Of a stretch of 64,000 nucleotides of DNA, positions 1-59,533 are shown in pieces. Each line of letters begins with the position of its first letter. Within the stretch, counting starts at the first letter, position 1. The translations under genes and the position numbers were made by a program. The notes beneath the pieces are model-generated. The model was not told the origin of the DNA and ran no database searches. It saw only the letters and a program-made list of their open reading frames with translations. The stretch lies in the NCBI GenBank assembly GCA_000091205.1, contig AP006499.2; one strand, written 5' to 3'. This DNA comes from Cyanidioschyzon merolae. Lineage: Eukaryota.

Positions 1-1825
1 GTCCCGATTTCGCTACTTCCGGCTGCTGTCAGAGCATGTCATGCATCGGCAAACGCTGCGACCTATGCTTCGCTTGCCATTTCCATGTTGTTTCTGTTCG
101 ACTTCGATGTACGCGTCAAAGCGGTGACATCTGGTTATCTTGCGGTGTTCTCCTGTGTCCGCAACGCCGGCTTCACGGGGCTACTTCCTTGTGGTGCCTG
201 AACGCTTACCTCATTGCCCGCTAGATGCGCTTGACGGATGCAGAGACGCTCGTCCATATCCGAATCCGTTTCTGCGCCCGGGGATGCAGCGCCCGATCAG
301 ACGTGCTTTTCCAGGTTATCCACTTGGTGCGTAGTTGGTCCCCTGTATGCGTATGCGAACGTTGCGTCATCCGACAGAGGATTTGCGGATCGCGATATTG
401 TCCATGATGAAACCAGTACCGCGTCCGAAATCGGAGCCCGACGATCAGCTCGTCACATTCCCATCGGTATACGCCCCGTCGTGCACAGCAGTGATGCTCT
501 CGCTATCGCAAGCAGTCGCTGCGATGACTAGATTCCGAGTGAAAGATGCTATTCCAAGTCAACAGAAGAGAACAGAGACGATCGTGCATATCCCGTGAGA
601 GGTATTGTGCTGGTGTCGGATGCCGTTTCGTCTAAGGTCACATGGAGAGGAGGATTTGTATTCCGCAGTTGTCGATTGCTTGACGTGACACGTTCATTGA
701 ACTTTAAACAAGAACTTGTGAACAAGTGCTCTAGCGACGACATTGAGCTGTTTTCTTCATCGATCCAGTGGCACGAATAGCGGCGCCTGCGACTTGCCTT
801 GGTTGATCAAAAACGTGCAGCATGCGCAAACCATACATGCAGCACGTAAGGAATTCAGAAGATCAAAGGCTTCTATCTATGAATTTGTTGATGATATCGA
901 TTATTTTACGAAGCCTTTTTCGAAGGTGTCTCGATTCGCCCTGATGTTGAGTACGTAACGAGTCCATGCGGCAACGAGTCGACGCAGTCACTCCACAGAA
1001 ACAGCCGAGAATCTTAAAAGGACCTTTGAATCCGTTGTCTCTCTCTTTGCTACAGTTCGATTCTTAAACCTGAAAATCTACAATCATTTTGGAAAGAATC
1101 GCCAGGCTAAAGCAGCACGAGCAGATACGCATCCACCCGACGCCTTTGGTACTTGGGCGTTTGGACGCGCGTGCGCTGCGCTTCAGCAGGCGAGGGACCA
1201 GATCCGAGAGCACCAAGAGCGTTACGGTGCTAGGTGGCCCTGGCTGGTGCTCTTTAAAGTGACGCAGGTGTTCAGGGGGTTCATAGGCTCGTGCGAAACA
1301 CTCGAGTCCATAGGCGCGAGCAGCCGTGCTCCACTTGGTTGTGGACGACTGGTTGAACTTGGGCACCTGTGCCTTGGCTTTGCGCGGCAGAGAGGCTCGA
1401 TCTTTACGTCGACCCTGCACACGGAACCTCACATCGCTTGGAGCTGGGAGAGGCACGCGAAATCCTGTTTCGTGTAGCTGAGCGACTTTTTCGTCTTCTT
1501 AAGCGGTGTATGAACTTTTGGAAAACCTCGGCACCGGCGTAGGGGTACGACCTGGAAAGCGCGGCGTTATTTTGGAGGTGGAGGCGAAGGGCATCGAGCG
1601 GAGACGGCCCCGACTGAGGAGGCAACCGTGCACGCCCGGGCTTCTGTGTATCGGTGCAGCTGCTGCTTAGACGCCTTCTTGCTGACGGCTGATCTGCCTG
1701 TGGCACGGAGCTCGAGCTTCAGTGCGTAACACAGGCAGCGTCGGGTGCTCTCGTTGGCACGACTTGTCTGCGGACGCACGTAGTGCGTATTTTCTTGCAT
1801 CTCTCGGGACGAACCCGTATCTGTA

Positions 1826-16596: not shown

Positions 16597-19113
16597 AGAC
16601 GTGACCGCACGGTATACCTGCACTTTCAGAACTGGGCATGTGCATGCGTCTTGACGACCCAGGGCGAGAAACTGCAACAACGACGCCAGATACAGCAGGC
16701 AGCAGCGGCTCGAGCGAGTGCGTCTCGCGATACCATTTGCGAAGCGACCGGCATGCTGGAACGACCACAAAGACGCGCGGGACGCAGCGTGATCGTACCT
16801 GTATCTATCGCTAGTGGTTGCAGCACTACGTAGCGAGATCCGATGCACTCATCGAGAACACGTCATCGTGGAGAGAAATGCGCACAGAGACTATCGCTGC
16901 ATCATTTTCGGGTGCAGCATTGCGACGCACCGAGGAAAACCGATCACGCGAGCATACCGTGAAGCGGGATAGATGTTTCCGCGAAGAAAAGTTTTTTCCA
17001 CAGTCTAAAATAGGGCCTTTTTGCATCATTCCTGGACGTTCAAATGGAAACACCAAGCATTGATTGCCCTTGACGTATTCGCCGGGCCAGATGGTTCCTG
17101 TTCCAGCTGCTCTGAGCATGAAGAATGCGGAACGTGCACGCTGCATTCCACGAGTTGCTGCGCCGCAGTAGCACGCGTTTGCGCGGTCCCGATTACAGTC
17201 CGCAAAGGTTCAGGTTTTTGGTTTCAAGCTGGCGACAGTTCGTATGTGCAGGAGGGATTGGGGATCCATCTAGACTGCCAATAGAAAAGCGCGAGTCGAA
17301 AGCAGCGTTCATGTACGGCGCTCAACTCTGCAGATCCGCTTTGCAAGGAAGCGATCGGACGGTTGCACGCGACGTCGCATGCGTTTCGATACACCCGCCT
17401 AACGCGTTACCGGGCAAGAGACACCACGGAAACCCGGCTAATATACACGATGTGTCGATAAAGACACATGCTTCATGCAGCCTGCTGGTCTGCTGGACTG
17501 CAACGCCGCCACCCGTGAAGTGTATTGAACGCGCGGAAGCGTCGAGGCAGCTGCATTGGAGCGGAGATCGAGACCCTGGGAACCGGCTCTGGAAGCGGAA
17601 ATTCCGGTTTACCCGTGTCAGAATAAAAAATAGAACGAGTCGCGTTCGCCAGCCGAGGCATACGTTCTAAAGTCTGGGACTCTTCGCATGAACGCCAGCG
17701 CCAGCCTCCACGGGATTTTTTTGCGTATGTTTTGTTTGCTTGTCTCGGAACTATAACTCTGTTTTCAGCTGCCAGGCGATGTGCACGGCGACGTAAATGT
17801 TCCTATTTCGTCGCTTTCGGGGGTTGTCGACGCATTTCATGCTCAGGTAAAAGTTGTAATCTCCGCTTTGCCAGCCATTTTCCTTCTCTTTAGATACAGG
17901 ATCGGTGTGCCCTGCGCAGCTGTGGCACTTGACTAACGGCACGTGCTCCGATACATTCAATGCATCTTCTCGCGAGAGCGCCGAACTCTGCCGCGTGAAC
18001 GCTTGCTTCTTCGCTCGGCACATGCCCTTGACAAGGACAGAACTTTCACCCTGATGCTGTTCTCCGCTTCTGCGCCCAGGATCGTACCATGCGATCAGGG
18101 GCTCCTTCAGGGAGCTCGCCCCGGAGAGCACGCCGGCTGCTCCTTATGCGAGCGCATGCAGTTCCATTCGAAAGAGAGTTTCTGAAAGGCGAGGCTCTCC
18201 GTGATGAAGCAAGTATTGTAAGGAAAAATCAGGCTGGAGATCGTCTCTAGAAATTCCGATCCGTCTGTGATCCCTCTTTGCGGAAAGCGTTGACGAAGTC
18301 TCCATCGGAAGCGATCGCCTCTGTGGCTCAAGTCCGAATCCAAGACTCTTTTCCATGAAAGAAGACACGGGAACTTCTGGGACCATACCTTGTGAATTGT
18401 ATCATGGTACAGTGGAGTCCCGTTTCACCAGTTACCATGACGAGAGGAGGATTTATCTCTCGAACGCAGTCTGTGATTCAGCGAGACAAGTTCAGTGAAT
18501 GTTCGGCATGAGATTGTGAACAATGCCCCCAAAGAGTGAAGTCGAGCAGTTTCCTCGTCAATCGAGCGGGCGAATGATTATGGTCACGAGATGTCCTGGA
18601 GCATGAAGATCGATAAGATAAGGCAAGCTTGATTTGTGTATTTTACATATAAGGGAAGGAGAAGGATGGATGCTTTTTCATATGCATTGGATAATACTGT
18701 CGGTTGTTTTACCAGTGCTTGTTCGAGCGCGTTACGAATCATCCCGATTCCGGTGACGCAACGAATGCCAGTGGCAGACAATATTGCAGGTGCCACTTCG
18801 AAACGACGACCGAGGATCCGAAAACTACCTATGGATCCGTAAGCGCATTGTGCTGCGCTTCGAACGCCTACCAAGCGCATCAAAAAAATTCGTACGGAAA
18901 TCGAAAACCAGGAAACGATTGCCCAGTTCACTTTACCACTTGAAGCTGACACCAACGTAGATGCATAGATCCAAAACTCTACGTCAACTCGCCGACGCCC
19001 CTAGAGCGATTGTGATCATCATCAGGTCGAGTGGTGCGCGATGTGCGCTCGCTTTTGCTAGAATGGCACCAGATGCATTCGGGGTGTACGGAACGCGAAC
19101 AAGACTGCTTTAT

Positions 19114-20814: not shown

Positions 20815-21100
20815 TCGTTGAACGCGAGTCTGTGGCAGCGCAACGAGTTCGGGGTCGAGGCGACCGCTAGCGTCTATGGAGTGCGTTCCTCGCGGCAGGT
20901 AGCTGTGGTATGAACAATGGTGACGGATACAGCTCCGAGCGTTGCCACTTCACCTGGCGTGTATACCAGCTTTATTTTTAGAACCTCATGGAAACGCGCC
21001 CAGTCATAGGCGTATGCAAGGCGTGCATGAGCGCCCGGACGGCAAACACTAGCGCGCAACGCTTTATATACCAAATTTCGTGCTAATTGTTGCGAGTCGC

Positions 21101-21185
21101 GGTAGTATAGCTCAGTCGGTTAGAGCGTGCGGCTGTTAAGACAGTAGAAACCGCAAGGTCGAGAGTTCAAGCCTCTCTACTACCG
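21101..21185 (+). tRNA. tRNA-Asn (anticodon GUU) with an 11-nt intron at the canonical 37/38 position
   Basis: Cloverleaf is readable: acceptor GGTAGTA/TACTACC, D arm GCTC-AGTCGGTTA-GAGC, anticodon stem TGCGG/CCGCA with loop CTGTTA|AGACAGTAGAA|A, variable loop AGGTC, T arm GAGAG-TTCAAGC-CTCTC, discriminator G. U33 and A37 are conserved. Mature length 74 nt. Confidence 0.75.
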
Positions 21186-21190
21186 TCAGC

Positions 21191-22619: not shown

Positions 22620-23999
22620 TCAAAGAATATTCACATACTCGCGAAGCATCGCGGTCAAACTTGGATGACGCAACTTTCGCAGAGCTCGTGACTCAATCAG
22701 GCGAATCGTGTGAACTGGTAACTTGAACCTTGCACTGAGTTCCTCCGCGGAGTGCGGACGTTCGTCATCCGAAATGCCGTACCTCAAACGAAGAATCTCG
22801 CGTTCCTGGAACGGAAGGGTGCGCAACACGCACTCGACATCTTCACGCATACAGCTCCGCTCCAGAGCCTCCTCGGGTGTCTCCTCTGTGGCCTCTATGA
22901 CGCTGCCAATGGAGAGCGGCGCCTCTCCCTGCTGTGCCTTGTAGAGACTCTGGGCCTCAGTGCTTGGTGGCCCCTCTAGACTAAGGGTCTGCGTTTCCCA
23001 GGCGTGTTGCGTGATCTTCTTCAGACGTTTCAGTGTCATATTGCATGCCTCAGCGACTTCCTCGTCCGTTGGTGGTCTCTTCAAAACGTGTTGCAAGCGG
23101 GCCCTCGTCCGATAAATCTGTCGCAATGATTCAGTCACATGATTGGGTAAGCGGATCGTGCGTGAGTGCTCAGACACACACCGCTGGATTGCCTGCCTGA
23201 TCCACCAAGTCGCGTAGGTTGAGAACTTGAAACCTTTGGAGGGATCGAACTTCTCCGCCGCGCGGATGAGGCCAATGGCTCCCTCCTGAATGAGATCGCC
23301 GAGAAAAATGTTATGCTGCCTCTGAAGTCGCACTCGTTCATGAGCGGGCACCTCTATTCCGCTCTTCGTCTTGGACCGCCAGGCAGAGCGCACTACTGCC
23401 CGAGACTTGTAACGATTGGCTATTGCTAGAACTAAACGCAAGTTTGCTGCGACAAGACGTTCACGCGCCCTCCGTCCACGTTCCACCCGCTGCTGGATTT
23501 CCTCTTCGGGCGCATCAACTGCAGCCGCCCACTCTGCGTTTGTAGGCTCACGCCCCAGGGTGTTCCGGAGCTCGTCACGTTGTTTCAACAGCGCGCAGTA
23601 GTCCTGCGTGGCTCGCGACAAACGCGCAACCTCCTCGTCAGAGATGCGGTCCAACTTACAGATCTCTCGGACATAGGCCGTGGCTGCACAGGTCGTCGTG
23701 TGATTCGTTCGACGTCGAGGCTTCTTCGCCGCGCTCGTCGGCTCCTCTAGCTCGTCAACTTCGACCTTCTCAAGATCTTCTTCTTGAGCAAGCACCTTGT
23801 TCTCGTCCTTGATAACAGGAACATTTGGCACCGAAACCAACGTCGACAACGAGCGCAGCGACTCCGGCAAGGACCCCAGCGGGGTAACCTTCATGTGCGG
23901 GGTCATCACTGCGTGGCCCCGCGCAACCCGCGAAACGGGACAGACCCGCGCAGCAACCTGCCGCTTAAGACTCGAGACGCGTGCCCAACTGAGAAACAT
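22620..23999 (-). CDS. Sigma-70 family RNA polymerase sigma factor with an N-terminal extension (nuclear-encoded, plastid-type)
   Basis: Region 2 ([12 protein letters not shown]...[37 protein letters not shown]), region 3 and region 4 ([11 protein letters not shown]...[24 protein letters not shown]) are present. The first ~150 aa are non-conserved, consistent with a targeting peptide. Confidence 0.85.
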
Positions 24000-24435
24000 A
24001 GAGAGGGATACAAAGCAGTCTCCTCGTGAAACGAGGTGTCAGCTGCGTAACCAGGAAGAAACAGGTCCTGCTTGAGCACAGGTCACCGCAACGAGAGTAC
24101 AAAGAACGTTGGCTGAAACCCGCCGCGTGTAGGGCGTGTGCTCGCCCCCGATCTCAACGACGGCGGGGCAACGCAGTGACCTCAGGGCGCGCGCGCGCAC
24201 GCCCCAGGGCGTGGCTGGAGAGCTCGACCGCGGGTGTGGACCCCCGCCGGGGTGCACGCGCCCGAATCCCAGATCAGGGCGGTTGGTTAAGCGGGTGCAC
24301 GCTCGGCGCAGCGCGTCGGGATGCTGCCGTCTGAGTCTTAAAACTGGAATTTATTGGATATTTTGGTCGTGCGTCGGCTTCAGCAGGCGCCGGCGGCCGC
24401 GGCACACCTCAACCATCCCAGATACGGCATCGTGA

Positions 24436-25450
24436 GCGCGCGTCCGATAAAGGTGGAATCCTGAGATGTTCGCTTTGTTCTTGGCTTGCGATTTACGTTA
24501 CGAACGATTCCCAGAGGTACAGCGCCAGCATTCGGATCGCAGCAATAGGGGATGACGGATTCATACGTAGTTTCAGGATGATCGGTCATCGTTTCGAAAT
24601 GGCTCTTTCGAATCTCTTTCAGAGGGAACACGCAACGATACCACACTGAGGATGATCCTCGATGCCCTCGAACAACGGCTCCTAAAATAACCGATCTCAT
24701 CATCCAATGCATACGTACAAGCCTCCACGCCTCTCTTTTCCTCAGGTGCAGCACGATCGAATCACCCATGCCTCAAGGTATCGATCCGTAGGTTATGAGC
24801 GCAATCGTAGGCGCACCAATTTGGACTGCTGCATTACCATGGGGAAACAGTATTCGACATCGCTTCCCTAGGGCTGGCCTGTGACCTCGTTGCGGACGTT
24901 CGCTGAATTTGGCACGTTCAATAGTCGATTCGATTCGATTCGATTCGAATCGAATGACAAATCCGGCTCCATCTGCGGCTATCGACGAAACGGCAATCGA
25001 CTGCAGCACGGGAGGTGCCACGGGGTATGGGCTGCGGGGCTCCCGTGCCTTGCGTTTGCATGGAAATGATCATTGGGTCGGTCTCGGATCGTCCGTTGCG
25101 TTGGCATCCAGCGGATACTGCGTCACTGCGGTGCACGGAAAGCGGGTGCCTGGGTCGATATGTACGGACCTGATCTCCAGCCTGGATTTTCATCCTGGTA
25201 CGTGTTTCTTCCTGATGAACATCGCGTGCCGCAGACCCTCGTCTCGTCGCGAAACAGCGAAGAACAGAGGCTGAATACGATAGAGAAGAAGAAGACAAGC
25301 GAAGCGTAGATCGCAACGACCGCTTGTGCTTGCAATGGATGCACAGCAGCTGGAAGCCGCGTCATTGCGTCGATAACGCTGCTATCAACAATCCTTCGAC
25401 TGCTCAAGATGGAGTTGGTGCAAAAAGGGAGACCAGCAGATTGAAAGCCG
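24436..25450 (+). repeat. Family-X dispersed repeat, direct-repeat copy 1 (~1 kb, no long ORF)
   Basis: About 97% identical to 27750-28765. Starts at 'cgcgtccgataaaggtggaatcctgag'. Contains a (GATTC)n microsatellite at 24925-24955 and the conserved core 'gaagacaagcgaagcgtagatcgcaacgaccg...ccttcgactgctcaagatggag' at 25290-25430. Confidence 0.9.
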
Positions 25451-25860
25451 GAGATTCGAGCGAGGAAAAGGACGGAGTTCCAGATAAAGCACGCAAATGC
25501 TTGTGTTGATCACTGAAAAAGAAAGCGACTCACACCCTATAGTCTCCATCCGTTTTTAGGGAGTTGATCGGTTCGGTTTTCTGTCTGACATGGGTGCAAA
25601 ACCCCAAATATGTGACCTATGCGTTTTGAAAAGCCGACATACTTCACGGCCTCCTGCGGTGTGCAACTGCAGCTGCAGCACCTGCGGCTCGGTATCGCAA
25701 GCGGCATTCTACTCAGAGGCCGCCATGTAACGCGTCGCGGTGCGTCCAGCCGGTGGGCGGTGTCCTGGCTGAGTCGCAGCGCCGGGCGTAGCTGACGTCG
25801 AGTGCGAGCCTGGTGGTAGCCAGCGACTTCCTCCGTACCAGCACGAGGCACTGACAGGTC

Positions 25861-26853
25861 ATGTTCGTGGCACTCGGACCTGCCAAACTAGGCCTTGACC
25901 GGCGGCTTGGAGCCCCTCGAGTTTCAAACCGGTTGAGGACGTTAAGGCTGTCGTTCGCGGAACGCGTGGAGCGCAGCTTGCGGAGAAAGTTTCCTGCCGA
26001 CTCGGTCGCCCGTGTAATCCAAGCTTGGCGACAAATTCAAAGAGGCGAGATGCTTCGCGAGGATCAGAGGGAGGCACATAGCTATATTCGAGGACTTCGC
26101 ACTGCCAGGTTTTTTGATAACGCCGAGTTTCCCTGGGCGGCTGCTCTCGAGAGGAACTGGGAGACCATCCGCGACGAACTGCGGCACTGGGAAACGCGAC
26201 GCCAGGAGCTCGAGGCGCTTGGCTCGCAAGTTTGGGTTACTGCAGCTCGAGCGGAGGCCGTTGCCTATGGCCCGGACTGGCGCACCCTGGTTCTGCAGGA
26301 TAGACGCTGGCATGACGACAACTGCAAGCTCTTCACCAAAACGACAAGAATTATTCGGGATTGCGGTGTGCCGTCAGTCGAGGCTTTTTTTGCCAGGCAA
26401 GCACCCCAGAGCGGCATCAAGCTTCATTCTGACGGATGCAACTTTATTTTGACAGCGCATTTGGCACTTCAGGCACCGCCACGACAGTCATGGATTGCAG
26501 TTGGCGGCGAGCGCCGTTTCTGGGAAGACGGGAAGGTGCTCATTTTCGATACCAGCTATCTCCATGAAACATATAACGAGAGTCAAGACTCTGATCGGTA
26601 CGTTCTTTTGTTGCGTTTCTGGCATCCTGAAACAACTAGAGTAGAGCGCGAGGCCTTGCAGTACATTTTTGACGTGGTCGACAACCCGTCGTGGGTCGAT
26701 CGAGACCTGAATGATCTGGGAGCAGGTCTCGATTCCTCGCTCGTAGAAGATTGGATACAGCGTCCGAATAGGAAGGCGCGGCGTGGCACCGGCGGCAAAG
26801 ACCGCAAGGACCGCACGTTAAATCCGCCCAGGGGTTTCGGTCGCTCGGAATGA
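25861..26853 (+). CDS. Aspartyl/asparaginyl beta-hydroxylase-family (2OG-Fe(II) oxygenase, cupin) protein
   Basis: The FFDNAEFPW...LERNWETIRDEL block and the ...IKLHSDGCNFILTAHLAL... His/Asp metal-site region resemble the Asp/Asn beta-hydroxylase family. The gene lies between the two family-X direct repeats. Confidence 0.6.
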   Translation: MFVALGPAKLGLDRRLGAPRVSNRLRTLRLSFAERVERSLRRKFPADSVARVIQAWRQIQRGEMLREDQREAHSYIRGLRTARFFDNAEFPWAAALERNWETIRDELRHWETRRQELEALGSQVWVTAARAEAVAYGPDWRTLVLQDRRWHDDNCKLFTKTTRIIRDCGVPSVEAFFARQAPQSGIKLHSDGCNFILTAHLALQAPPRQSWIAVGGERRFWEDGKVLIFDTSYLHETYNESQDSDRYVLLLRFWHPETTRVEREALQYIFDVVDNPSWVDRDLNDLGAGLDSSLVEDWIQRPNRKARRGTGGKDRKDRTLNPPRGFGRSE

Positions 26854-27749: not shown

Positions 27750-28765
27750 AATACCCGCGTCCGATAAAGGTGGAATCCTGAGATGTTCGCTTTGCTCTTG
27801 GCTTGCGATTTACGTTACGAACGATTCCCAGAGGTACAGCGCCAGCATTCGGATCGCAGCAATAGGGGATGACGGATTCATACGTAGTTTCAGGATGATC
27901 GGTCATCGTTTCGAAATGGCTCTTTCGAATCTCTTTCAGAGGGAACACGCAACGATACCACACTGAGGATGATCCTCGATGACCTCGAATAACGGCTCCT
28001 AAAATAACCGATCTCATCATCCAATGCATACGTACAAGCCTCCACGCCTCTCTTTTCCTCAGGTGCAGCACGATCGAATCACCCATGCCTCAAGGTATCG
28101 ATCCGTAGGTTATGAGCGCAATCGTAGGCGCACCAATTTGGACTGCTGCATTGCCATGGGGAAACAGTATTCGACATCGCTTCCCTAGGGCTGGCCTGCG
28201 ACCTCGTTGCGGACGTTCGCTGAATTTGGCACGTTCAATAGTCGATTCGATTCGATTCGATTCGAATGACAAATCCGGCTCCATCTGCGGCTATCGACGA
28301 AACGGCAATCGACTGCAGCACGGGAGGTGCCACGGGGTATGCGCTGCGGGGCTCCCGTGCCTTGCGTTTGCATGGAAATGATCATTGGGTCGGTCTCGGA
28401 TCGTCCGTTGCGTTGGCATCCAGCGGATACTGCGTCACTGCGGTGCACGGAAAGCGGGTGCCTGGGTCGATATGTACGGACCTGATCTCCAGCCTGGATT
28501 TTCATCCTGGTACGTGTTTCTTCCTAATGAACATCGCGTGCCGCAGACCCTCGTCTCGTCGCGAAACAGCGAAGTACAGAGGCTGAAGACGATAGAGAAG
28601 AAGAAGACAAGCGAAGCGTAGATCGCAACGACCGCTTGTGCTTGCAATGGATGCACAGCAGCTGGAAGCCGCGTCATTTCGTCGATAACGCTGCTATCAA
28701 CAATCCTTCGACTGCTCAAGATGGAGTTGGAGCGAAAAGAGAGACTTGCGTATCAAGAGCCGGCG
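27750..28765 (+). repeat. Family-X dispersed repeat, direct-repeat copy 2
   Basis: Near-identical to 24436-25450 and carries the same ORF artefacts in the track. Differences are a shorter (GATTC)n at 28234-28257 and a more diverged final ~40 bp. Confidence 0.9.
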
Positions 28766-30109
28766 ATAAGTCGTAGGAGAAAGATGCATTCGCAGGAAAA
28801 CCAGCAAACGCTGGTCTTCATAGCGCTTGGAGTAGACCGAAACTTGTGAATATATGCTCCCGCTCGAAACGCGGACCTGGTTCTTTTTTATTTTGGAGTG
28901 GGTGTAGAACCATGTCAAGATAAGAGTATCTGCGATCAAGTCACGCTGGCGCTCGCTCTTCGATATTCGCAGGCGGAGGCCTTGGCGGCTGCTATCAGAA
29001 TGCCATCCATAACCGGGTCGAGCTCCGTTTTCCCTGTTTCCGAGCATTTCCGCCTATTGTAACACTTTAAAGTCAGTTGATCATCTGAGGCACGAGTTGT
29101 CAAACCATTGGTTCAAAGATCAGCCCCGACCGAAGCGGGCCTGCTCAGCATCTCTGGCAGGCTCATAGCCCTTTGGGCGCTCCGGTAGCCGCTCGAGATG
29201 TAGAGATTCAGCACCAAGTCACCGGGACGTCGTTCAGCGCATATTCTGGTGCCCCGAACAGCGGTTTTTGCCGCGTGATATCGCGGAAACGAGGCAAAAC
29301 TTCCCGAATGCGCAAGCGGGAATCGCAACCTGCTAAAGACCGAAGTTACTCACCAGGTGTGATAACATTCCCCGCAAATCCAATATCAAGTTCTATGCTC
29401 GAATAAAGGCCTCATCGATCCAGCAAGCCACCAGAACCGAGCGCTACTGGTGGTGCACCCTGCGACGTCGGATGCGTCGCCGCCGCGGTACCATTACCGA
29501 GATGGAACCGCGTTGCAGTCCGTAATCGGTCATCGGTTCGAGGTCGTCTAGCCAGCGATTGCATAGTGTCTGTTCACGGTTTAGAGTTACGACGATTCGT
29601 TGACGAGGCGCGCAGCCCATGTTGCCGCTTCTGTGCATGCATCGACCCAGCTCAAGATTGACTCCGGGGACACCCTGCATAGACTCGGAAGGCGAAAATT
29701 CATACCTACGCTTTGGAGACGAATGCACAGTCGGAGACAATTCGAGACAGGCACGCGCACTCTCCGCCGCATGAAAGCTACCAAGCGGCTCGCTTGTGTC
29801 CGAGCCTAACGTCGTGCGAGAAGACGGTGCAGTGTACCTGGCCAACACCACGCCATCATTTCAGCTATGGGTAGCTCGCTTTAAATCTGCATGATTTGGG
29901 CATCGTATACGCCACCAGTCTCGAGCAGTACACACCAGGGATGATAGAGCGCCTCATGATCTGACAGAATGATTAGCAACATCGCGGATGCACGCTGCAG
30001 AAGACCATGCGATCGACAGCTGCGAGGCCGTCCTCGGTACGCATCGATTGTGCACCGACACGCTGCCCAGACGCACGGAATCGCGGTAGCCCAGCAACGT
30101 GCATCTTCA

Positions 30110-30400
30110 AACTATATCTTTCTGAACTTTATGGTTAAAATATCCAACAATATACCCCAAATGCTCGCGGACAGCGTTCGCAGAGGCAATACCCGATGAA
30201 CAGAAATATCACTAAAATATACTTTCCTCCACCTTATGGGAAAGAGTGTACCAACATTCCGACTCGATATGCGCGCGGACAGCGTCCCCCGGAGGCGATT
30301 CCCGATGAACAGGTACATCACAAAAATATACATTCCAGAACTTTATGGAAAAGTATACCCAGAATTGGACTCCAAATGCGCGCGCAATCGATCCAGCGGG
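30110..30400. repeat. Imperfect tandem repeat, ~110-bp unit x ~2.6, 400 bp upstream of the CHD gene
   Basis: Units share 'ctttatgg..aaa...tacc.a.a.t...ctc.a.atgcgcgcggacagcgt.c.c.gaggc.attcccgatgaacag..a.atcac.aaaatata..ttc'. Confidence 0.6.
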
Positions 30401-36800: not shown

Positions 36801-36855
36801 AGATCCGGTTCGTATCAGACTCTGCCTAGAGCCGATGGAAACAAACCCCGACTGA
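30802..36855 (+). CDS. CHD-type chromatin remodeler: tandem chromodomains, SNF2 ATPase, helicase-C, SANT-like region, C-terminal FYRN/FYRC
   Basis: Chromodomains: [16 protein letters not shown] and [19 protein letters not shown]. SNF2_N: [16 protein letters not shown]...[11 protein letters not shown]...[10 protein letters not shown]. Helicase-C: [30 protein letters not shown]...[21 protein letters not shown]. SANT-like: [24 protein letters not shown]. C-terminal FYRN-like [12 protein letters not shown] and FYRC-like [13 protein letters not shown]...SPSGCWSQI. Single 2017-aa ORF containing a (GCT)n poly-Ala tract. Confidence 0.9.
   Translation: [2017 protein letters not shown]
35959..35990 (+). 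repeat. (GCT)n trinucleotide repeat encoding poly-Ala inside the CHD gene
   Basis: gctgctgctgctgctgctgctgc is translated [12 protein letters not shown] in the CHD ORF. Confidence 0.9.
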
Positions 36856-38545: not shown

Positions 38546-39927
38546 CGACACCCATGAAGAACGACAATGTCATGGGTGCGCTCCGCGAGCTCGTACGCAC
38601 ACGCTCAAGTTCTGGTCTCTTGCGAATGCGATCAAGTCTCTGGGGTTTATCTCAGCGACTGCTTCCTGTTCCTGCCGCGTACTTCCGGCTTCACAGGCAC
38701 CGTTCTCTTCTGTCGCTCCAGATTCGGTGTCAGCAGTCGAAGGGTGTTGACGGCAGTGTGCGAGTCCCAACTGTTTCTCGGCCTCGGGCTGGTGTCAACG
38801 AATGCAATGCGCACTCGCGGTCGCTGCGATCTACGCATCACTTGCCATGTTCGTCTTCTTATTGTGCAGCCTCAGTGCACGTCCTTCGCAGCAGTAACGC
38901 TTGACTCTGGGCAGGTGTTTCCGTACCGTCCATCGCACCGTTTTCTCCGAGTCCTGCCTTCTGGGTCACCAGCGCTAGTCGCATCGCTCGCTACAAGCGC
39001 TGGACGGGTCCAGGCGGTTACCTCTGATACCAACCTGCATTGGCGCGCCCGCCGCTGCACCCTACGCTCATGAGCTTCACCTAGAGTGACCAGCTCGGCG
39101 AATTCGCTTGCTTCTGCGTACGAAAGCGAATGCATACGCTGTTGCGTTCGGTCAAGGACTGTGGAGCGCGATGTTGTCCATGATGAAACAAGCACCGCAA
39201 GGAATACCCTGCGGGCGAAACGAGTCTACGAATTCTGATCCGTCCACGCGCCTTTCGTGCAACGCGTCGACACCAGCTCGACTGGAAGCGCTCGCTACGA
39301 TGACTCGAGTCCGAGTCCGGGTCCGAGTCCGAGACCCCTCAACAGGTAAACGGAAGCGTCGGGCACCCCCGGGGTCGTATCCCGTGAGCGATACCGTGCT
39401 GCTGTGGAGTCTCGTTGCGTCGATAGCCACGGAGGAAGGATGATTTGTCTTCCAAGCGGAACTCAATATTGGACATGACATCGTCTGCGGGCCGTCGGCA
39501 GGAGCTTGTGATCAAGCCGTCATGGCGTATCGTAGAGTGTTTTGCATCGTTCCTCTGGCGTTGCGGACTGCTGCGCCCACGAGTTGCCATGAAGCAGCTG
39601 AATCGTGAGCTTGAAGCACGCGTGACTGGAGCGTGCGTCTCGTCATGCGAGGTGAAGAGCCGAGGCATGCTCGTTTGAACCGGATAAAGAAATCTGTTAT
39701 TTTGCATACGCTAATTCGAGGAGGTCGCGACTCATCTTGATTCTGGTGTCGCAGCGAATGCAACCGGTTGAGCGTCGACGGAGCCGCACCGGAACGTTCA
39801 CCGAGAATCCTGAAACTACTGGTGAATCTGGAAACCCCTATTGGGTGAATCTGAGTGTCGAGGTTGCAAATCTGGAAAACGGTTGGAAAAAATCGAAAGG
39901 CAGGAGCAGTCGACTAGTGCAGTATTC
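38546..39927 (-). repeat. Family-X repeat, inverted-repeat arm L (~1.38 kb)
   Basis: Reverse complement of 43613-45002. Identical 168-aa and 77-aa ORF artefacts appear on opposite strands in the track (38567..39073+ = 44475..44981-; 39445..39678+ = 43857..44090-). Contains a (GAGTCC)n hexamer repeat at 39306-39333. Confidence 0.9.
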
Positions 39928-41963
39928 TATTTTCGTTGGGCACTGGTTGAGACAGCAGCTGCAAGTTGCGAAAGAATGCGCGGTGCCAGACATCTTGGAA
40001 TGTAGTGAAATCCTCAACAGTAATTGCGGAAGAAGCGCTCTATTGCTTGGATATACACGTGAGTGACGGCCTTGCCGCTCGGGTTCAGGTCGTAGGTCAA
40101 CGGTTGCATACAGTCTCTACAGTGAAGCATTAGAGCAACTTCGCGAAGAGCATTGACGGTGTATGGTTCAGTTTTTTTTTGCGTACAGAGAGGAAATGGA
40201 ATAAAGTTGACAGATATGATATAGCCCGACGCAATATCAATCTGCACGTACTTCGTAACTACGAATTGCGAGTCGAGCAACAAGGCTCGTTTTCAACTGT
40301 TCAACATAGGTGAAGAGCAATGGTTCATTGTGGGTGTGGAAACGGGCTTGAAGAGTATCATGCCCGTTGTTTTGCCTCTGAGTCACGGATACGGGGCCAA
40401 AGGCTTACACTGAACAAGACGAGGTTGCCCAGCTTTGCAGGGCTCTGTACTTTCGAGAGTCGTACATGACACACGGTACGCGACGTACCAACAGGTAACA
40501 GGATACTGTTAGAATAATCTCGATGCTCTGAGCACTGCACCCGGCAGACGAGATGCTTTGTGCGCTTCATTCGAAGGTTGCATCAGCGTCCGAGAATCCT
40601 GATGCAGGCGAACATTGGCAGGATTGCATGAAACCACGCTGGGGGCGCCAACGGTTTCGGTTGTACGGTGGCGAGGACGGTGCATACGTCAACTTCATCA
40701 ATGCGCTGGAGAAGGCGAAGACCGATACGTCGCATCGTTTGGCGGTTGAATTCTGTGGCACTGGACGTGCTGTAGAGCACACACGCTGCACTCCTGCACC
40801 ATCGAAGAGAGTGGACTGCTGGCGGAGGAAGCGATTCGTCACGTTTCCCATCGATTAGTTCAGGACAATATACATGCATCACAAGCACAGGCGTGCGCTC
40901 AGACTGGTCCAGAAGAAGATAGTGAAACAGAGCCGGATACACAAGGTGATGTGCGGTAAGCTAGCCGAACGTCAGATAGCGAGATAATCGAAGTTGTGAG
41001 GTTTGCTGTGGTTTGTTTCCGACCGCATCCATGTGCGCGGAAGCGCCTTCCGCACCGAGCCTTGAACGCCTCGTTCAACAAGCGGAAATATCCTGTACTT
41101 TCGGATCGTCCAGCGCTGCTCTGTCGAGCGAATATTCGAGTGAACCGTTTAGAACTCAGTGTGAGCATTGTGCTCAAACGCTGACGACTTCCAATGAAAA
41201 ACATAGCAAACGCCAAGAGGGAGGGCATCGCATTCCTGCCTCGAACAAGGCACTGGGATGGTACGGGAACGCGATCCGGCATGGCTTCAGTGCCTTACGT
41301 ATACATAGGGAGAGAGTTTCTCGGGCTTTTGTTCGACGATACTGGTATTCTATTATCCGACGTTACTGGGCAAGTCCAAATTCAAAATGCAACATTTCAT
41401 GGCAACGCTACAGCACGTGCCAGCGTCAGATCAACAGCGAATCGCCTCGGCAACGGAGACCAACCCCTGGGTAGTTGTATCATAAGCGCAAACGCTCCTC
41501 GCTAACGTACAGTGCCGAGAGCAGGTACTAGGATTCACCCATTGTGGTAGATCATCTCCCTTGGACTCCAAATTCGCGATACCGGAACCCATTGCATACG
41601 TACGTGCAGAAAAAGCAGATGATTTCCCTAGCACCAGGACATTTTTTCATGATTCATATATTCCAATATGCGACCTTTCTGCGGCACAGCGGAAAGTAGC
41701 TCAAGTTTCTCGCTCTTGTGAGAACGCAGTAAAGCTGATCGGTATGTAATGCGATTTTTTGCAATCCTGTAAATCGACCAAGAACTTGGGGTTGTCTTCC
41801 ATCGCAACGGTTGGCACCCTGTGCGAGAAACGATGCCGCCGCCTCCGTCGACGTCACTGGAATGCAACCTCGGGTCTTCAAACGTGCGTTTCGGGTCGCC
41901 AAACGCGAAGCCGTGTTCACAAAGACTACCAAGGCACTCGAACATCAGTGCAGCATCCGCGAA

Positions 41964-43310: not shown

Positions 43311-43612
43311 GAACCGTTCATCACTCGGGTAAGTGTAGTGACTGCCCCCAGGCGGTGCTCAACGTGCCCGACTCGACTCGCACACTAGACAAGTTTTGCA
43401 CCCGCGGCGCGCTGCAGACAGCGGGCTTGTGTACTCGGCACACTGCGGATACCCGAGTGGAAAAGGAAGATGCTCGACAGAACACTCCTATCAGAGAGCG
43501 ATTGGGTTGTAGGATTGCTTTGTCGGTGTAGCGGTCGACGAGGAAGATAATGCAAATAGGTACGGATATGCCACTGCGCGATGCTACACTAGTGTCAGAT
43601 CAACATGGAATA

Positions 43613-45002
43613 CTACACTAGTCGACTGCTCCTGCCTTTCGATTTTTTCCAACCGTTTTCCAGATTTGCAACCTCGACGTTCAGATTCAACCAATAGGGG
43701 TTTCCAGATTCACCAGTAGTTTCAGGATTCTCGGTGAACGTTCCGGTGCGGCTCCGTCGACGCTCAACCGGTTGCATTCGCTGCGACACCAGAATCAAGA
43801 TGAGTCGCGACCTCCTCGAATTAGCGTATGCAAAATAACAGATTTCTTTATCCGGTTCAAACGAGCATGCCTCGGCTCTTCACCTCGCATGACGAGACGC
43901 ACGCTCCAGTCACGCGTGCTTCAAGCTCACGATTCAGCTGCTTCATGGCAACTCGTGGGCGCAGCAGTCCGCAACGCCAGAGGAACGATGCAAAACACTC
44001 TACGATACGCCATGACGGCTTGATCACAAGCTCCTGCCGACGGCCCGCAGACGATGTCATGTCCAATATTGAGTTCCGCTTGGAAGACAAATCATCCTTC
44101 CTCCGTGGCTATCGACGCAACGAGACTCCACAGCAGCACGGTTTCGCTCACGGGATACGACCCCGGGGGTGCCCGACGCTTCCGTTTACCTGTTGAGGGG
44201 TCTCGGACTCGGTCTCGGTCTCGGACTCGGTCTCGGACTCGAGTCATCGTAGCGAGCGCTTCCAGTCGAGCTGGTGTCGACGCGTTGCACGAAAGGCGCG
44301 TGGACGGATCAGAATTCGTAGACTCGTTTCGCCCGCAGGGTATTCCTTGCGGTGCTTGTTTCATCATGGACAACATCGCGCTCCACAAGTCCTTGACCGA
44401 ACGCAACAGCGTATGCATTCGCTTTCGTACGCAGAAGCAAGCGAATTCGCCGAGCTGGTCACTCTAGGTGAAGCTCATGAGCGTAGGGTGCAGCGGCGGG
44501 CGCGCCAATGCAGGTTGGTATCAGAGGTCACCGCCTGGACCCGTCCAGCGCTTGTAGCGAGCGATGCGACTAGCGCTGGTGACCCAGAAGGCAGGACTCG
44601 GAGAAAACGGTGCGATGGACGGTACGGAAACACCTGCCCAGAGTCAAGCGTTACTGCTGCGAAGGACGTGCACTGAGGCTGCACAATAAGAAGACGAACA
44701 TGGCAAGTGATGCGTAGATCGCAGCGACCGCGAGTGCGCATTGCATTCGTTGACACCAGCCCGAGGCCGAGAAACAGTTGGGACTCGCACACTGCCGTCA
44801 ACACCCTTCGACTGCTGACACCGAATCTGGAGCGACAGAAGAGAACGGTGCCTGTGAAGCCGGAAGTACGCGGCAGGAACAGGAAGCAGTCGCTGAGATA
44901 AACCCCAGAGACTTGATCGCATTCGCAAGAGACCAGAACTTGAGCGTGTGCGTACGAGCTCGCGGAGCGCACCCATGACATTGTCGTTCTTCATGGGTGT
45001 CG
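43613..45002 (+). repeat. Family-X repeat, inverted-repeat arm R (~1.39 kb)
   Basis: Partner of 38546-39927. Carries the family core 'gaagacgaacatggcaagtgatgcgtagatcgcagcgaccg...cccttcgactgctgacaccgaatctggag' at 44694-44850 and an expanded (GAGACC/GAGTCC)n at 44199-44250. Confidence 0.9.
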
Positions 45003-48770: not shown

Positions 48771-48993
48771 TTCAGTGCCCCGCTTACTGAACGCGGCATC
48801 GAGCGTGGAACGAATCCTAGTTGAAGGACTTTGAGGAAACCTCAATGCTCGTGTGCCCGCGGGCCGCCGAGCGACACGACCGGGATGCGCGCACGCGCCT
48901 GCGCCACCGGGGCATCGTGCAACGTCCCCCGGAGGCCTGACGGGGTGAAAGCGCCTCACTGGCGAATCGGAGCGCTGTAGTGCGGCTTAGGCT

Positions 48994-57840: not shown

Positions 57841-58289
57841 GCATCGAGGCTGGAGCAAATCTGAGCTGAAAGCCCAGAGGGGCTCTGCGCGAACCTGCCG
57901 CTTGCCCATTGGATCCGTTCGTTCCCGCGGCGGTGCTCAGCGCTCCTGCGCCGCATGGTATTCGGCATGCTGGCGCCTGACACACTAAGTGCGACGTGGC
58001 TGTTGGGGAGTCGACGCCACTCTCAGCGCAGGGCCTTGAACAAGCACCAGGTCGTAGAGAGTCTGCCCGCCTTGAAGCAGTGCGCCACAGACTCATTATT
58101 TCAGATCCAAATGGGACACTGGACTGAGCGCTCTGCTCTTGTCTTTCCATTTATTTTCCGAACTTTGTTTGAAGAAGTACAGCATCAACATTCGAGCTGC
58201 AGCGATCAGGGCTTTCGGACTCGTACGTGCGTTTCGGATCCTCAGTCGTGGCCTCGGAGTGGCTCATTCGACGCTTTGGCGCTGGTATT

Positions 58290-59290
58290 CGATACGTGAC
58301 CCGAATTAGGACGATTCGCGACGCCCGCGACCATGGGTTCCTAACATCATCCAAGTCATTATTTAATTCATACGTAGAAGCCTCCACGCGTCCCCGTTCC
58401 TTATGAATATCATGGACATAGCACGCATTCTTCAAGATTTTGTTTCTTCTGTTTCAAGGCAACGCTTGGGCAGAACGCTTCGCGCCGCTGAATGGACGAG
58501 ACGAAAACGCTCAACGTCGTCACTTGAGGGCCTGGTTCAAGAGTTCATCCTTAAAGTCCGCAGAGCTTTGGGCGGTCAAATAATCGATTCCGTTCGAAAC
58601 GCAGATCCCTCTCTCATTGTGATCATCGACGAAACGTGATGGCATACCAGCTAGAAACCTTTCACGGAACAAACTCCCGGAAACGCCCAGCGCTTCCGTT
58701 TCCATGTTAAAGGGTTTCGGACTCGGACCTGAGTCATCGCAGGGATCGCGTCTAGACGAGAATGCATCAGTGCGATGAACGTAAGGAACGTAAACAGACC
58801 GAAATGTTTAGACTCGTTCTCCAGCCTGGTTCCTCCTCACTGTACTTGTTTCAGCATGCGTGACATCGCGTTCCCGCACATGCTCCGAAGAATGGTACAG
58901 CGCGCACATGCGCAGCGCACAGCGTATTCACGGAAGGAATCGTCTAGAGGAAGCTAGTGATCGTAAGGTACTGCTACGCACGCGGAAACAGAGGAGGAGG
59001 CGGAGCGCATCCGGGCGAGCCTGCATGCACCATGGGGCGGCGCTCGTAGGCGACATTGTGGTGGCATATCGGGGCATTTGAAGACACGCTCTTGTGACCG
59101 CTGCGAAGCGCGCACCGCGACTATATGCAGCGAAGATGAATATGGCAAGCGAAGCGTAGATCACAACTGTTGCCTACACACGACATGCATAACCACAACG
59201 ACCGGAAACTGTGAAATCGGGACTTGCACCTCGCCATCAACATCCTTCGGCTGCTGATAACGGAGCTAGAGGAAACAGAGAGAGACCGGT
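58290..59290 (+). repeat. Diverged solo copy of family-X repeat
   Basis: Shares 'catcatccaag..at.....tacgtagaagcctccacgcg' (58333-58390) with the direct-repeat copies (24693-24735). Shares 'cgcttccgtttccatgttaaagggtttcggactcgg..ctgagtcatcg' (58693-58740) with IR arm R (44175-44265). Shares the core 'gaagatgaatatggcaagcgaagcgtagatcaca...catccttcgactgctgataacggag' (59135-59270) with all copies. Confidence 0.6.
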
Positions 59291-59533
59291 ACTTTTAAAA
59301 CCGGATATGAAACGAGGGAAATGGGATGCATTCGCCGACCAGACCCACAAAGGCGGAAACTCATGGCCAAGGGAAAGACACCCAACCTTTTGAGTCTGCC
59401 CCCGATTCGGCTGCGTGTACCCGTTCGATACGATGTTCACATGGTTGTTGCAGTGCAAGCACCTTGTCCAGCAAGTCCAGCCTTCAAGCTCACGCTCCGT
59501 TTTCTCGTGTAAAAGAGGCACGCTTGTTCATAC

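Follow-up and report, generated by a model that had tools for sequence, protein, structure and literature searches.

A repeat family at the locus

The window analysed here, a 64-kb stretch of chromosome 17 of Cyanidioschyzon merolae 10D in which two encoded proteins are identical to BAM82107.1 and BAM82108.1, contains seven copies of a repeat that we call family X, each 1.16-1.41 kb long and together amounting to 8,966 bp, or 14% of the window (Table 1). A 1,383-bp consensus and an HMM were built from 12 copies; in metagenomes of strains about 99.3% identical, at least seven more copies lie in other genomic loci. The window copies detected by nhmmer span HMM positions ~2-1382 and have common termini. 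Our alignments agree with an earlier note on this DNA, which had united the direct repeats, the inverted arms and the solo repeat at 58290-59290 (here 58.1-59.4 kb) in one family, and the pair of direct-repeat and inverted-repeat segments that it quoted does align. The five copies it counted all exist, but the total rises to seven with copy E, overlooked on first reading, and copy D, which is cut by the window start and whose right ~220 bp, outside the window, are present in loci L025 and L027. Copy A1, in which the earlier note's positions 25290-25430 fall, and copy A2 have the same internal deletion of ~240 bp (consensus 787-1025). The suggestion that the region is subtelomeric found no support, as the window has no telomere repeats and housekeeping genes are interspersed throughout.

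Table 1. Coordinates of family X copies and of their landmarks in the window
Feature	Position	Strand	Basis
Copy D, cut by window start	1..1132	-	nhmmer
Copy E, full length	17607..18958	-	nhmmer, HMM 2-1380
Copy A1	24434..25599	+	nhmmer, HMM 6-786 and 1026-1382
A1 transposase relic (start codon position, HTH region, two D sites)	24515..25235	+	consensus landmark mapping
A1 first catalytic D, 'IDET'	24981-24992	+	consensus landmark mapping
A1 second D, 'MDNIAFHK' position	25212-25235	+	consensus landmark mapping
A1 core	25282..25396	+	consensus frame +2 match to PF07282, BLASTP to Fanzor1, landmark mapping
A1 block 1, linker between two CxxC motifs (EDENGKRSVDRN)	25282-25317	+	consensus mapping
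A1 second CxxC	25327-25338	+	consensus mapping
A1 RuvC-III motif 'NRDLNAAINIL'	25363-25396	+	consensus mapping
A1 right terminal inverted repeat, ending TCTGACATGGGTG	25573..25599	+	alignment, consensus mapping
Copy A2	27751..28907	+	
Copy B2, full length, inverted partner of B1	38546..39948	-	nhmmer, landmark mapping
Copy B1, full length, least interrupted copy	43586..45002	+	nhmmer, landmark mapping
B1 left terminal inverted repeat	43586-43611	+	
B1 transposase relic	43664-44389	+	
B1 Fanzor1 relic	44404-44944	+	
B1 block 1	44690-44725	+	consensus mapping
B1 RuvC-III motif	44773-44808	+	consensus mapping
B1 right terminal inverted repeat	44977-45002	+	
Copy C, full length	58092..59450	+	nhmmer, landmark mapping
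Copy C block 1	59132-59167	+	consensus mapping
Copy C RuvC-III motif	59215-59247	+	consensus mapping
Conserved block 1, as located in five copies	25264-25329, 28576-28641, 44672-44737, 59114-59179; 38811-38876	inverted in the last	
Conserved block 2, as located in five copies	25393-25432, 28705-28744, 44805-44844, 59244-59283; 38704-38743	inverted in the last	

Two protein-coding relics in the consensus

The description of the family as ORF-less stands for the present copies, every one of which has stops in all six frames. However, since the consensus restores two recognisable protein-coding relics, the further claim that the family has no coding capacity is wrong historically.

The 5' two-thirds of the consensus is a truncated Tc1/mariner-IS630 transposase. 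Its frame +1 matches Pfam DDE_3 (PF13358, positions 3-99 of 146; E=8.4e-10, 39.1 bits, cut-off 28.6), the transposase homology that marks this superfamily. The closest intact transposase, the 307-aa DD35E protein P0003, is only 30% identical over 59% of the query (E=1.2e-13), and it begins, as does the relic, with 'MYSLD(I/L)R'. The 'YSP..NPIE' region is missing because the Fanzor sequence starts ~10 nt after 'MDNIAFHKS'; the catalytic triad (D, D, E/D) is thus incomplete, and we class family X as a non-autonomous derivative. Two other readings of these motifs were rejected. 'IDET' and 'MDNIAF' as RuvC-I and RuvC-II of a single TnpB-like protein are ruled out by the many DDE_3-specific motifs and by the match to P0003, while the nucleotides that read 'AYSP', a candidate for the transposase 'YSP..NPIE', give in another frame the Fanzor1 sequence 'KKPVIVGYG', conserved in the proteins P0070 and P0150.

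The 3' third derives from a Fanzor1 gene, of which it holds the C-terminal ~170 codons. In BLASTP the relic matches residues 554-754 of the intact 756-aa protein P0150 with 42% identity (E=9e-35), P0152 with E=3e-35 and Chlamydomonas CRe-4 with E=3.8e-15. Frame +2 of the consensus matches PF07282 (Cas12f1-like TNB) with E=8.8e-6 and 26.2 bits, 0.1 below the gathering score of 26.3. Single copies score poorly in Pfam, and the Fanzor homology rests on the reconstructed consensus and on tblastn matches of intact proteins. The latter are independent of the consensus: P0152 and P0153 match copy E at 18173-17853 (E=1e-9 to 4e-10), and residues 716-744 of P0150 match the core of copy C at 59206-59292 (65.5% identity, E=0.001). 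Searched by itself against the PDB, the family X relic gave no match; a profile that includes family X matches the SpuFz1 structure 8GKH with E=2.4e-11. A scan of viral contigs found no relatives.

The consensus reads WEHLTIVKCHRC...CMKC...NRDLNAAINIL, that is, the Fanzor1 C-terminal arrangement [TS][TS]-x-x-C4 zinc finger-x(5,50)-RD, with T-I where the motif has [TS][TS]. The relic begins near residue ~554 of P0150 and lacks both RuvC-I ('GLDPG' in P0150) and the N-terminal domains. A complete Fanzor1 has an open reading frame that includes the RuvC-I aspartate, the first D of D-X(125,275)-..., and family X has no such frame; its Fanzor part is a fragment and does not amount to a Fanzor gene. 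Two frame changes are required in the consensus, one at the junction of the two relics and one near 'GNGG'; they may be alignment artefacts or real.

The conserved core lies within the Fanzor1 relic

The earlier note had described a conserved core of ~150 nt around a variable middle. Both conserved blocks are present at the positions it gave, but the core is not a separate unit, as the copies align over the whole 1.16-1.41 kb between their common termini. Pairwise identity is slightly lower in the middle (0.56-0.60) than in the flanking blocks (0.62-0.71), yet the alignment across it is gapless. Nor is the core clearly more conserved than the rest, with a mismatch to the consensus of 0.23 against 0.25-0.26 elsewhere. 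In copies E, G and K, found independently of the core pattern, block 1 is 72-76% identical to the consensus by hand count (76% in copy E).

Judged from its sequence, the core is a coding relic that comprises the Fanzor1 zinc-finger linker, the second CxxC and the RuvC-III motif. It sits within coding sequence, 125-250 nt upstream of the Fanzor stop, and 170-310 bp inside the right terminus, and it is therefore not a functional transposon end. The proposal that the family is a non-autonomous transposon was nevertheless essentially right in view of its shared termini, inverted repeats, TA-enriched flanks and truncated transposase and Fanzor1; it erred in taking the core for the end of the element.

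Termini and decay

The shared discrete ends of family X carry terminal inverted repeats (TIRs) of ~26 bp, as expected of a Tc1/mariner-IS630 element: the left end of the consensus agrees with the reverse complement of its right end in 21 of 26 positions. The dinucleotide TA adjoins 7 of 25 scored ends against a background of 3% (P=7e-6), and a majority rule gives T-A flanks on either side. However, decay of 25% should have left TA intact at ~56% of ends, whereas it is seen at 28%, and copy H alone has it on both sides, so that a target-site duplication is not proven. No empty site was seen. Reading the element as solo LTRs, or as an LTR pair around the AspH gene, conflicts with terminal repeats that are inverted and not direct and with the transposase/Fanzor interior. 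We also considered a promoter module, since three plus-strand genes have the core-bearing end 150-350 bp upstream of them, but the positions of copies A2, B2, D and E speak against it.

At each of the three codon positions the copies differ from the consensus by 0.24-0.27 (chi-square P=0.11-0.85), and this uniform divergence of ~25% indicates neutral decay. Among the metagenome strains there are no presence/absence differences over the window.

Intact relatives with the composite layout

Intact relatives recovered from metagenomes have the layout predicted for a parent of family X, a transposase followed by a full-length Fanzor1. On a 3.3-kb contig, P0003 is followed after 93 nt, in the same orientation, by a 636-aa PF07282 protein. 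In L036, the transposase end 'PPYSPWFNPIE' precedes a P0150-type Fanzor1 with an internal deletion of its own. That contig and the P0150-type lineage (L039, L036, L038) hold the closest intact relatives of the two halves of family X: the gene order is the same, the Fanzor is 42-46% identical to the family X relic, and the right-end motif, 'ATTCT...ATGG.GTGTA', resembles that of family X. As the recovered sequence of these relatives does not include their left end, the comparison of TIRs covers the right side only. In contrast to the decayed family X, these relatives have kept intact ORFs, on which purifying selection acts (dN/dS 0.15). Their source is a low-GC organism (32-39%) and not C. merolae, and they have a longer insert between the two zinc-finger CxxC motifs. 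The 216-aa P0070 is not a selected 'mini-Fanzor': P0150 is a 93%-identical full-length protein and L036 keeps the first ~24 codons of P0150, which makes L036 an internal-deletion derivative, as family X is. A full-length parent with family X TIRs was not found in C. merolae-like sequence.

Discussion

Considering all the above results, we conclude that family X is very probably an extinct, non-autonomous, internally deleted Tc1/mariner-IS630 transposon of C. merolae, derived from a mariner-Fanzor1 composite. Its parent would have consisted of a left TIR, a DD35E-type transposase, a Fanzor1 (a TnpB-like RNA-guided nuclease), a 3' tail and a right TIR. An internal deletion of an estimated ~2.2-2.3 kb would then have given rise to a master copy of ~1.38 kb, joining transposase codon ~240, just past the second Asp ('MDNIAFHKS'), out of frame to Fanzor1 codon ~550 ('EQRVLA...'). 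Such a deletion would have spared both ~26-bp TIRs, the transposase HTH region with the first two catalytic residues, and the last ~170 Fanzor1 codons with 'VIVGYG', 'WEHLT', the two CxxC motifs, 'NRDLNAAINIL' and 'ERP', at the cost of the transposase 'NPIE' glutamate and of the Fanzor RuvC-I. Having lost these catalytic parts, family X would have encoded nothing functional, and its cut-and-paste movement, probably into TA sites, would have depended on a transposase acting in trans. Following what was presumably an amplification burst, neutral decay took the copies to ~25% from the consensus, and gene conversion presumably homogenised the neighbours A1/A2 and B1/B2 later.

An unlikely alternative is that the Fanzor 3' region and the right end are, or were, a functional cis module, family X representing 'ghost' loci from which a Fanzor or transposase encoded elsewhere obtained omega-RNA guides or binding sites. 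If true, this would explain the retention and apparent conservation of the 3' part, and ghost loci with omega-RNA and no Fanzor gene are documented for SpuFz1 (PMC10432273). In the consensus, taken as the ancestral state, the 3' 227 nt fold better than shuffles (z=-3.5, 0/200) and form the strongest plus-strand window (others z=+2.2 to -1.9). For the structure tested, 70.6% of cells are paired, compared with 67.1% in shuffled alignments (0/500), and two independent deletion derivatives, family X and L036, keep Fanzor from nearly the same point (~aa 538-554 of 756). However, the pairing test is biased, its structure being derived from the consensus of the same sequences, and 5-25% of unstructured alignments reach such values. 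RNAalifold gives no consensus structure, minus-strand windows of the 3' third also reach z ~ -2.9 to -3.4, the core falls inside coding sequence, and the 3' tail decays faster (mismatch 0.30 vs 0.25). Moreover, C. merolae-like sequence yielded no intact Fanzor of the family X type that could use such RNAs.

It is also rather improbable that the chimera arose through capture of a Fanzor1 fragment by a non-autonomous mariner, or through recombination of two elements, and not by one deletion. Fanzor1 has been described as 'frequently captured', often within chimeric elements (Bao & Jurka, PMC3627910), and the two reading frames overlap at consensus 757-813, which blurs the exact position of the junction. 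Against this, the intact relatives already have adjacent, same-orientation transposase and Fanzor1, which makes a single deletion the simplest course, and the retained Fanzor part continues without a break into the 3' tail and a right end similar to the one in the intact lineage.

It is scarcely credible that the core represents a gene or module for a structured small RNA repeated in intergenic regions, an idea that its intergenic repetition without an ORF in present copies had suggested: the only gathering-score match of Rfam 15 covariance models in the window is a tRNA (21101-21185), the folding and covariation check that the earlier note had called for revealed no conserved RNA structure (extant core z=+0.57 relative to shuffles; RNAalifold -0.37 kcal/mol with 6 predicted pairs), and in the consensus the core translates to Fanzor1 zinc-finger and RuvC-III motifs.

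An origin of the copies by simple segmental duplication, or as pseudogenes of a host family, seems equally far-fetched. A1/A2 (95.6% identical) and B1/B2 (98.4%) are indeed recent local duplicates or conversions, but the high identity breaks off within the element or at its ends and in no case reaches the flanking sequence: A2 matches A1 at ~99% from the left end to ~28744, while the last ~170 bp are as diverged as unrelated copies. Segmental duplication, which the earlier note had named as the outcome that would overturn its reading, could thus apply to these two pairs only, and even these have the appearance of gene conversion that stayed within the element. Identity among the remaining copies is 65-70%, and they are dispersed in both orientations, with termini common to all. 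As to a host gene, block 1 reads on the minus strand as a hydrophobic peptide, reminiscent of a membrane protein ('AIYASLAIFIF', with seemingly synonymous differences); this reading was rejected in view of stops in every copy and the lack of codon periodicity.

The origin of family X from a mariner-Fanzor1 composite places it among known elements. Mariner-type composites with Fanzor1 and TA target-site duplications (PUl-1, PGv-1) were described by Bao & Jurka in 2013 (PMC3627910), and family X adds to them. Like family X, PUl-1, PUl-2 and PGv-1 have a Tc1/mariner-type DDE transposase upstream of a same-orientation Fanzor1 and share with it the transposase motifs 'DE.AF', 'GSVD..F' and 'DN...H'; their TIRs of 24-33 bp and TA target-site duplication compare with TIRs of ~26 bp and TA-enriched flanks in family X. 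In contrast, family X is 1.38 kb and not 3.4-3.8 kb long, lacks the transposase C-terminus and ~550 N-terminal Fanzor codons, is multi-copy and fully decayed, and its Fanzor relic shares only 27% identity with the PUl-1 Fanzor1. The 'ghost' Spu-1 loci of Spizellomyces punctatus, which outnumber the autonomous copies (Saito et al. 2023, PMC10432273), are likewise non-autonomous relatives of a Fanzor1 transposon that keep inverted repeats and the right end and make no Fanzor protein. They are, however, ~550 nt long and well conserved, with a demonstrated omega-RNA and no transposase remnant, whereas family X is 1.38 kb long and decayed, carries transposase and Fanzor relics, and any omega-RNA from it would be hypothetical.

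MITEs, by working criteria, are short and have an interior that is not coding-derived. Family X, at 1,383 bp and with an interior of transposase and Fanzor relics, is not one; according to P-MITE, C. merolae contains none (PMC3964958).

The one Fanzor1 family that Bao & Jurka name for C. merolae, CMe-1A (~150 copies, 3,169 bp), was left unclassified, with no TIRs or TSDs reported (PMC3627910). The 253-copy, 3.2-kb repeat described by Nozaki et al. 2007 is probably the same family, since both resemble a white spot syndrome virus protein. The second repeat family of our window, family Y, is a CMe-1A-type Fanzor1 fused to a DDE_3 transposase relic. Families X and Y are both Fanzor1-derived, old and dispersed in the same host, and are interleaved in the window; CMe-1A and family X nevertheless have no DNA similarity, and their protein similarity is restricted to the RuvC-III region (E=8e-4). 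In blastn and tblastn searches CMe-1A DNA and CMe-1 protein match family Y loci and not family X, apart from a single match of 22 aa (E=3.6).

Altogether, an apparently ORF-less conserved core becomes an annotated transposon fossil, and family X a second Fanzor1-derived family in C. merolae, with recognisable mariner-type termini. The known workings of such elements are unchanged by this result. Family Y joins the unclassified CMe-1-type Fanzor relics to a DDE_3 relic in the window and points to Tc1/mariner-type carriers for both lineages. One may speculate, as a doubtful extension of this, that both C. merolae Fanzor1 lineages rode Tc1/mariner-type transposons, that ghost-like deleted derivatives kept the Fanzor 3' end and right terminus as a working cis/trans module (an omega-RNA donor or a transposase/Fanzor docking region), and that several hundred such fossils make up a tenth or more of the genome. 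The C. merolae genome paper reported eight class II elements and 0.7% transposons. With family X alone occupying 14% of a 64-kb window, decayed transposons probably make up more of this model 'minimal' genome than has been estimated.

Results

Family X is a full-length repeat with defined ends

A repeat search recovered the conserved blocks at the positions given in the earlier note, as four direct copies and one inverted copy, but the total of five copies was too low, since a profile search added copies D and E (Table) and brought the number to seven. Likewise, the conserved blocks of the proposed ~150-nt core are present but do not form a separate unit: in self-comparison and multiple alignment the repeat aligns over its full length, and the core is just one stretch of it. 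The seven copies, all intergenic, occupy 8,966 bp (14%) of the window, or one copy per 9 kb, and each carries stops in all six frames. By self-comparison, A1 and A2 are ~99% identical across most of the element, B1 and B2 98.4%, and the remaining pairs in the window 65-70%.

Scanning metagenome contigs with a degenerate 24-mer taken from block 1 of the core yielded 30 loci. About half represent the window's own chromosomal region in strains ~99.3% identical to it, colinear and without insertion differences; the others are different genomic sites bearing copies F, H, I, J and M. Neighbouring copies G and K and one deleted copy were recovered independently of the pattern. In one strain (L022:843-1076), the 3' tail of copy C (window ~59350) is partly duplicated, adding ~130 nt; this is the sole structural difference from the window among these strains. 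Three further copies were found in ~58 kb of non-window sequence, itself not pattern-selected, and a rough extrapolation gives several hundred copies genome-wide, a figure that clustering may inflate.

Similarity starts and stops at the same two points across a 14-copy alignment. The left end (ACACCTGTGTCAGATCAAAATGGAAC) of the 1,383-bp majority consensus, built from 12 copies, matches the reverse complement of the right end at 21 of 26 positions. Majority-rule flanks are T-A at both ends; of the 25 scored ends, 7 carry TA, where the background frequency is 3% (P=7e-6). A TA target-site duplication is therefore likely, albeit short of proof because both sides are kept in one copy only.

Table. 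Features located in the window
Feature	Coordinates	Strand	Remark
Family X copy D	1-1132	-	profile search; truncated by window edge
Family X copy E	17607-18958	-	profile search
Family Y copy	14088-15380	-
Family Y copy	47353-48825	-
Family Y copy	56476-57870	-
Family Y partial copy	4519-5015	-
tRNA gene	21100-21187	+	85-88 nt; Rfam 60.9 bits; ARAGORN label 'tRNA-Stop, anticodon tta'
Plastid sigma factor	22620-23999	-	exact match to BAM82107.1 (C. merolae 10D)
Aspartyl beta-hydroxylase-like protein	25861-26853		exact match to BAM82108.1 (C. merolae 10D)

The GC content is 50-60% along the whole window, and a search for telomere repeats within it found none. The tRNA gene is probably an intron-containing tRNA with a mis-assigned anticodon. 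Two ~109-bp tandem units, 77-81% identical, lie at 30161-30384, upstream of a 2,017-aa ORF (30802-36855).

The interior holds transposase and Fanzor1 relics

Frame +1 of the consensus is nearly open, from MYSLDIRIAAIRA... through ...CFIMDNIAFHKSS. Pfam DDE_3 is matched there over profile positions 3-99 of 146, with E=8.4e-10 and 39.1 bits (cut-off 28.6), and there are weak Tc3-type HTH matches as well. The closest intact transposase in a collection of 5.8 billion proteins is P0003, a metagenomic DD35E protein of 307 aa with the N-terminus 'MYSLDLR' (30% identity, E=1.2e-13). Copies B1 (44240-44290) and B2 (39270-39310) differ at few places, one being the length of a short GGACTC/GGTCTC microsatellite within the transposase relic.

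The consensus changes frame ~10 nt past the second catalytic Asp, and the second frame, reading EQRVLACAADSVLAEGIAQKKPVIVGYGTGRGNGG..PSVPVKGMYRAMKQAF..VVDIWEHLTIVKCHRCEG..EDENGKRSVDRNFRLCMKCVDNSRKLRNRDLNAAINILRLLTTELEGQERPAYL, represents the C-terminal portion of a Fanzor1. PF07282 (Cas12f1-like TNB, formerly OrfB_Zn_ribbon) matches it at E=8.8e-6 (26.2 bits, cut-off 26.3). By BLASTP, it matches the published Fanzor1 C-termini of CRe-4 from Chlamydomonas (E=3.8e-15) and four others (3e-10 to 4e-7), and is 42-43% identical to the intact metagenomic Fanzor1 proteins P0150 (756 aa, residues 554-754, E=9e-35) and P0152 (E=3e-35). The relic alone found no match in the PDB; a profile of Fanzor1 C-termini including family X retrieved solved Fanzor1 structures (8GKH, 2.4e-11), then TnpB and Cas12f. 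As a control independent of the consensus, tblastn of intact Fanzor1 proteins on the raw window sequence hit copy E (18173-17853, E=4e-10 to 2e-7) and, at E=0.001, a stretch of 29 aa in the core of copy C (59206-59292, 65.5% identity).

The core itself can be decoded in A1. Block 1 (25282-25317) codes for the linker EDENGKRSVDRN, which joins two CxxC motifs. The second of these (25327-25338) falls in the 'variable middle', FRLCMKCVDNSRKLRN, and the RuvC-III motif 'RDLNAAINIL' occupies block 2 (25363-25396). Lying 170-310 bp inside the right end, the core is therefore not the terminus, contrary to its reading as the functional end of a transposon. Nor is it specially conserved to any real extent. 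Measured against the consensus, the core mismatches at a rate of 0.23 and the 3' tail at 0.30, with the two coding relics in between at 0.25-0.26. Core conservation comes out higher in the 12-copy set, an effect that is partly artefactual since block 1 served as bait for five of its copies. Pairwise identity in the core among the five independent window copies (0.60-0.69) resembles that of consensus blocks 121-300 and 741-780, and E, G and K, recovered by other routes than block 1, are 72-76% identical to the consensus there (hand count on the alignment).

The alternative of a small RNA module found no support, as the only Rfam match in the window is one tRNA, with none in the core. Folding of the extant core, a check suggested by the earlier note, gave z=+0.57, and RNAalifold, run on 12 copies over their 3' 340 nt, returned -0.37 kcal/mol and six pairs. 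The 3' 227 nt of the consensus form the strongest plus-strand window (z=-3.5), although windows on the minus strand of the 3' third come close, at -2.9 to -3.4. Pairs of the 227-nt structure are kept at 70.6% vs 67.1% in shuffles (0/500), a test biased because the structure was derived from the same sequences. These values hint, weakly, at structure in the ancestral 3' end, which an encoded omega-RNA would predict. Fanzor 'ghost' loci with omega-RNA but without the gene are known (PMC10432273).

Copies have decayed neutrally

In neither relic does mismatch differ between the three codon positions (0.24-0.27; P=0.11-0.62), and pairwise comparisons of family X copies revealed no codon periodicity. 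The differences therefore reflect post-insertion neutral decay of an already chimeric master. A 240-bp deletion is private to A1 and A2. From the left end to ~25432/28744 (24434-25432 vs 27751-28744) these two copies are ~99% identical; over the last ~170 bp to the right end, identity is ~60%, as diverged as unrelated copies. The near-identity of B1 and B2 (38546-39948 vs 43586-45002) is confined to the element. Both patterns suggest gene conversion between neighbouring old copies, not recent transposition or flank-inclusive duplication.

Intact relatives show the proposed parent architecture

On the 3,273-bp contig of P0003, a co-oriented gene for a 636-aa protein bearing PF07282 follows 93 nt downstream. 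Contig L036 (GC 33%, positions 1-1114) carries the end of a mariner-type transposase (VLFVPPYSPWFNPIE...), a ~240-nt spacer and a Fanzor1 of P0150 type whose first ~24 codons are joined to the last 216, with aa ~25-537 lost; it is another internal-deletion derivative. The complete 756-aa P0150 gene lies on L039:207-2477, and L038 and L039 have a common right-end motif resembling that of family X. Between the coding regions of L036 and L038 (L038:112-672) dN/dS is 0.15, hence the P0150-type lineage is or was recently functional. L036, L038 and L039, from ENA metagenomes and a low-GC (32-39%) organism, represent the closest living relatives of family X. In the 3' tail, which separates the Fanzor stop from the right end, a hairpin (L038 ~735-765, L039 ~2555-2580) differs by one compensatory pair (AAACTAC...GTAGTT vs AAAGTAC...GTACTT) and could belong to an omega-RNA or to a site for transposase binding.

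Discussion

The earlier note was half right: family X is a non-autonomous transposon, but the functional end or small RNA module it proposed did not hold. Bao & Jurka described mariner and Fanzor1 composites with TA target-site duplications (PMC3627910). Family X is best read as such a composite from which the stretch between transposase codon ~240 and Fanzor codon ~550 was deleted. We conclude that it is an ordinary transposon family of the mariner-Fanzor1 type, non-autonomous and extinct.

The C. merolae genome paper put transposons at 0.7% and counted eight class II elements, which weakly resemble bacterial transposases (PMC1955436); these eight may be the best-preserved members of family X and of family Y, the second repeat family of the window.

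Two CMe-1 Fanzor1 relics were also detected by tblastn, a longer one at 4561-6417(-), with aa 166-724 matched in pieces, and an isolated one at 40616-41020(+), flanked by B2 and B1, the inverted pair of family X (aa 524-657, 41.6% identity, E=5e-22). Some CMe-1A copies still encode an intact Fanzor1 (Bao & Jurka, PMC3627910). In the metagenomes, L008:1581-3929 matches the full 734-aa CMe-1 protein in one tblastn segment (75.6% identity) and is a putative ORF.

The copies of family Y have matches to both the CMe-1 protein and the Fanzor1 consensus published as CMe-1A. Their three-copy consensus holds a DDE_3 transposase relic (PF13358, E=2.3e-10) with all three catalytic regions, 'SVDENCF', 'LLLDNVAFQH' and 'PPYAPWFIPIE', followed downstream by CMe-1A nucleotides ~827-969 and then the last ~120 Fanzor codons. 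Families X and Y thus have in common the layout of a transposase plus an internally deleted Fanzor1. CMe-1A was left unclassified by Bao & Jurka (PMC3627910), and the structure of family Y ties the CMe-1 family to a Tc1/mariner-IS630-type transposase.
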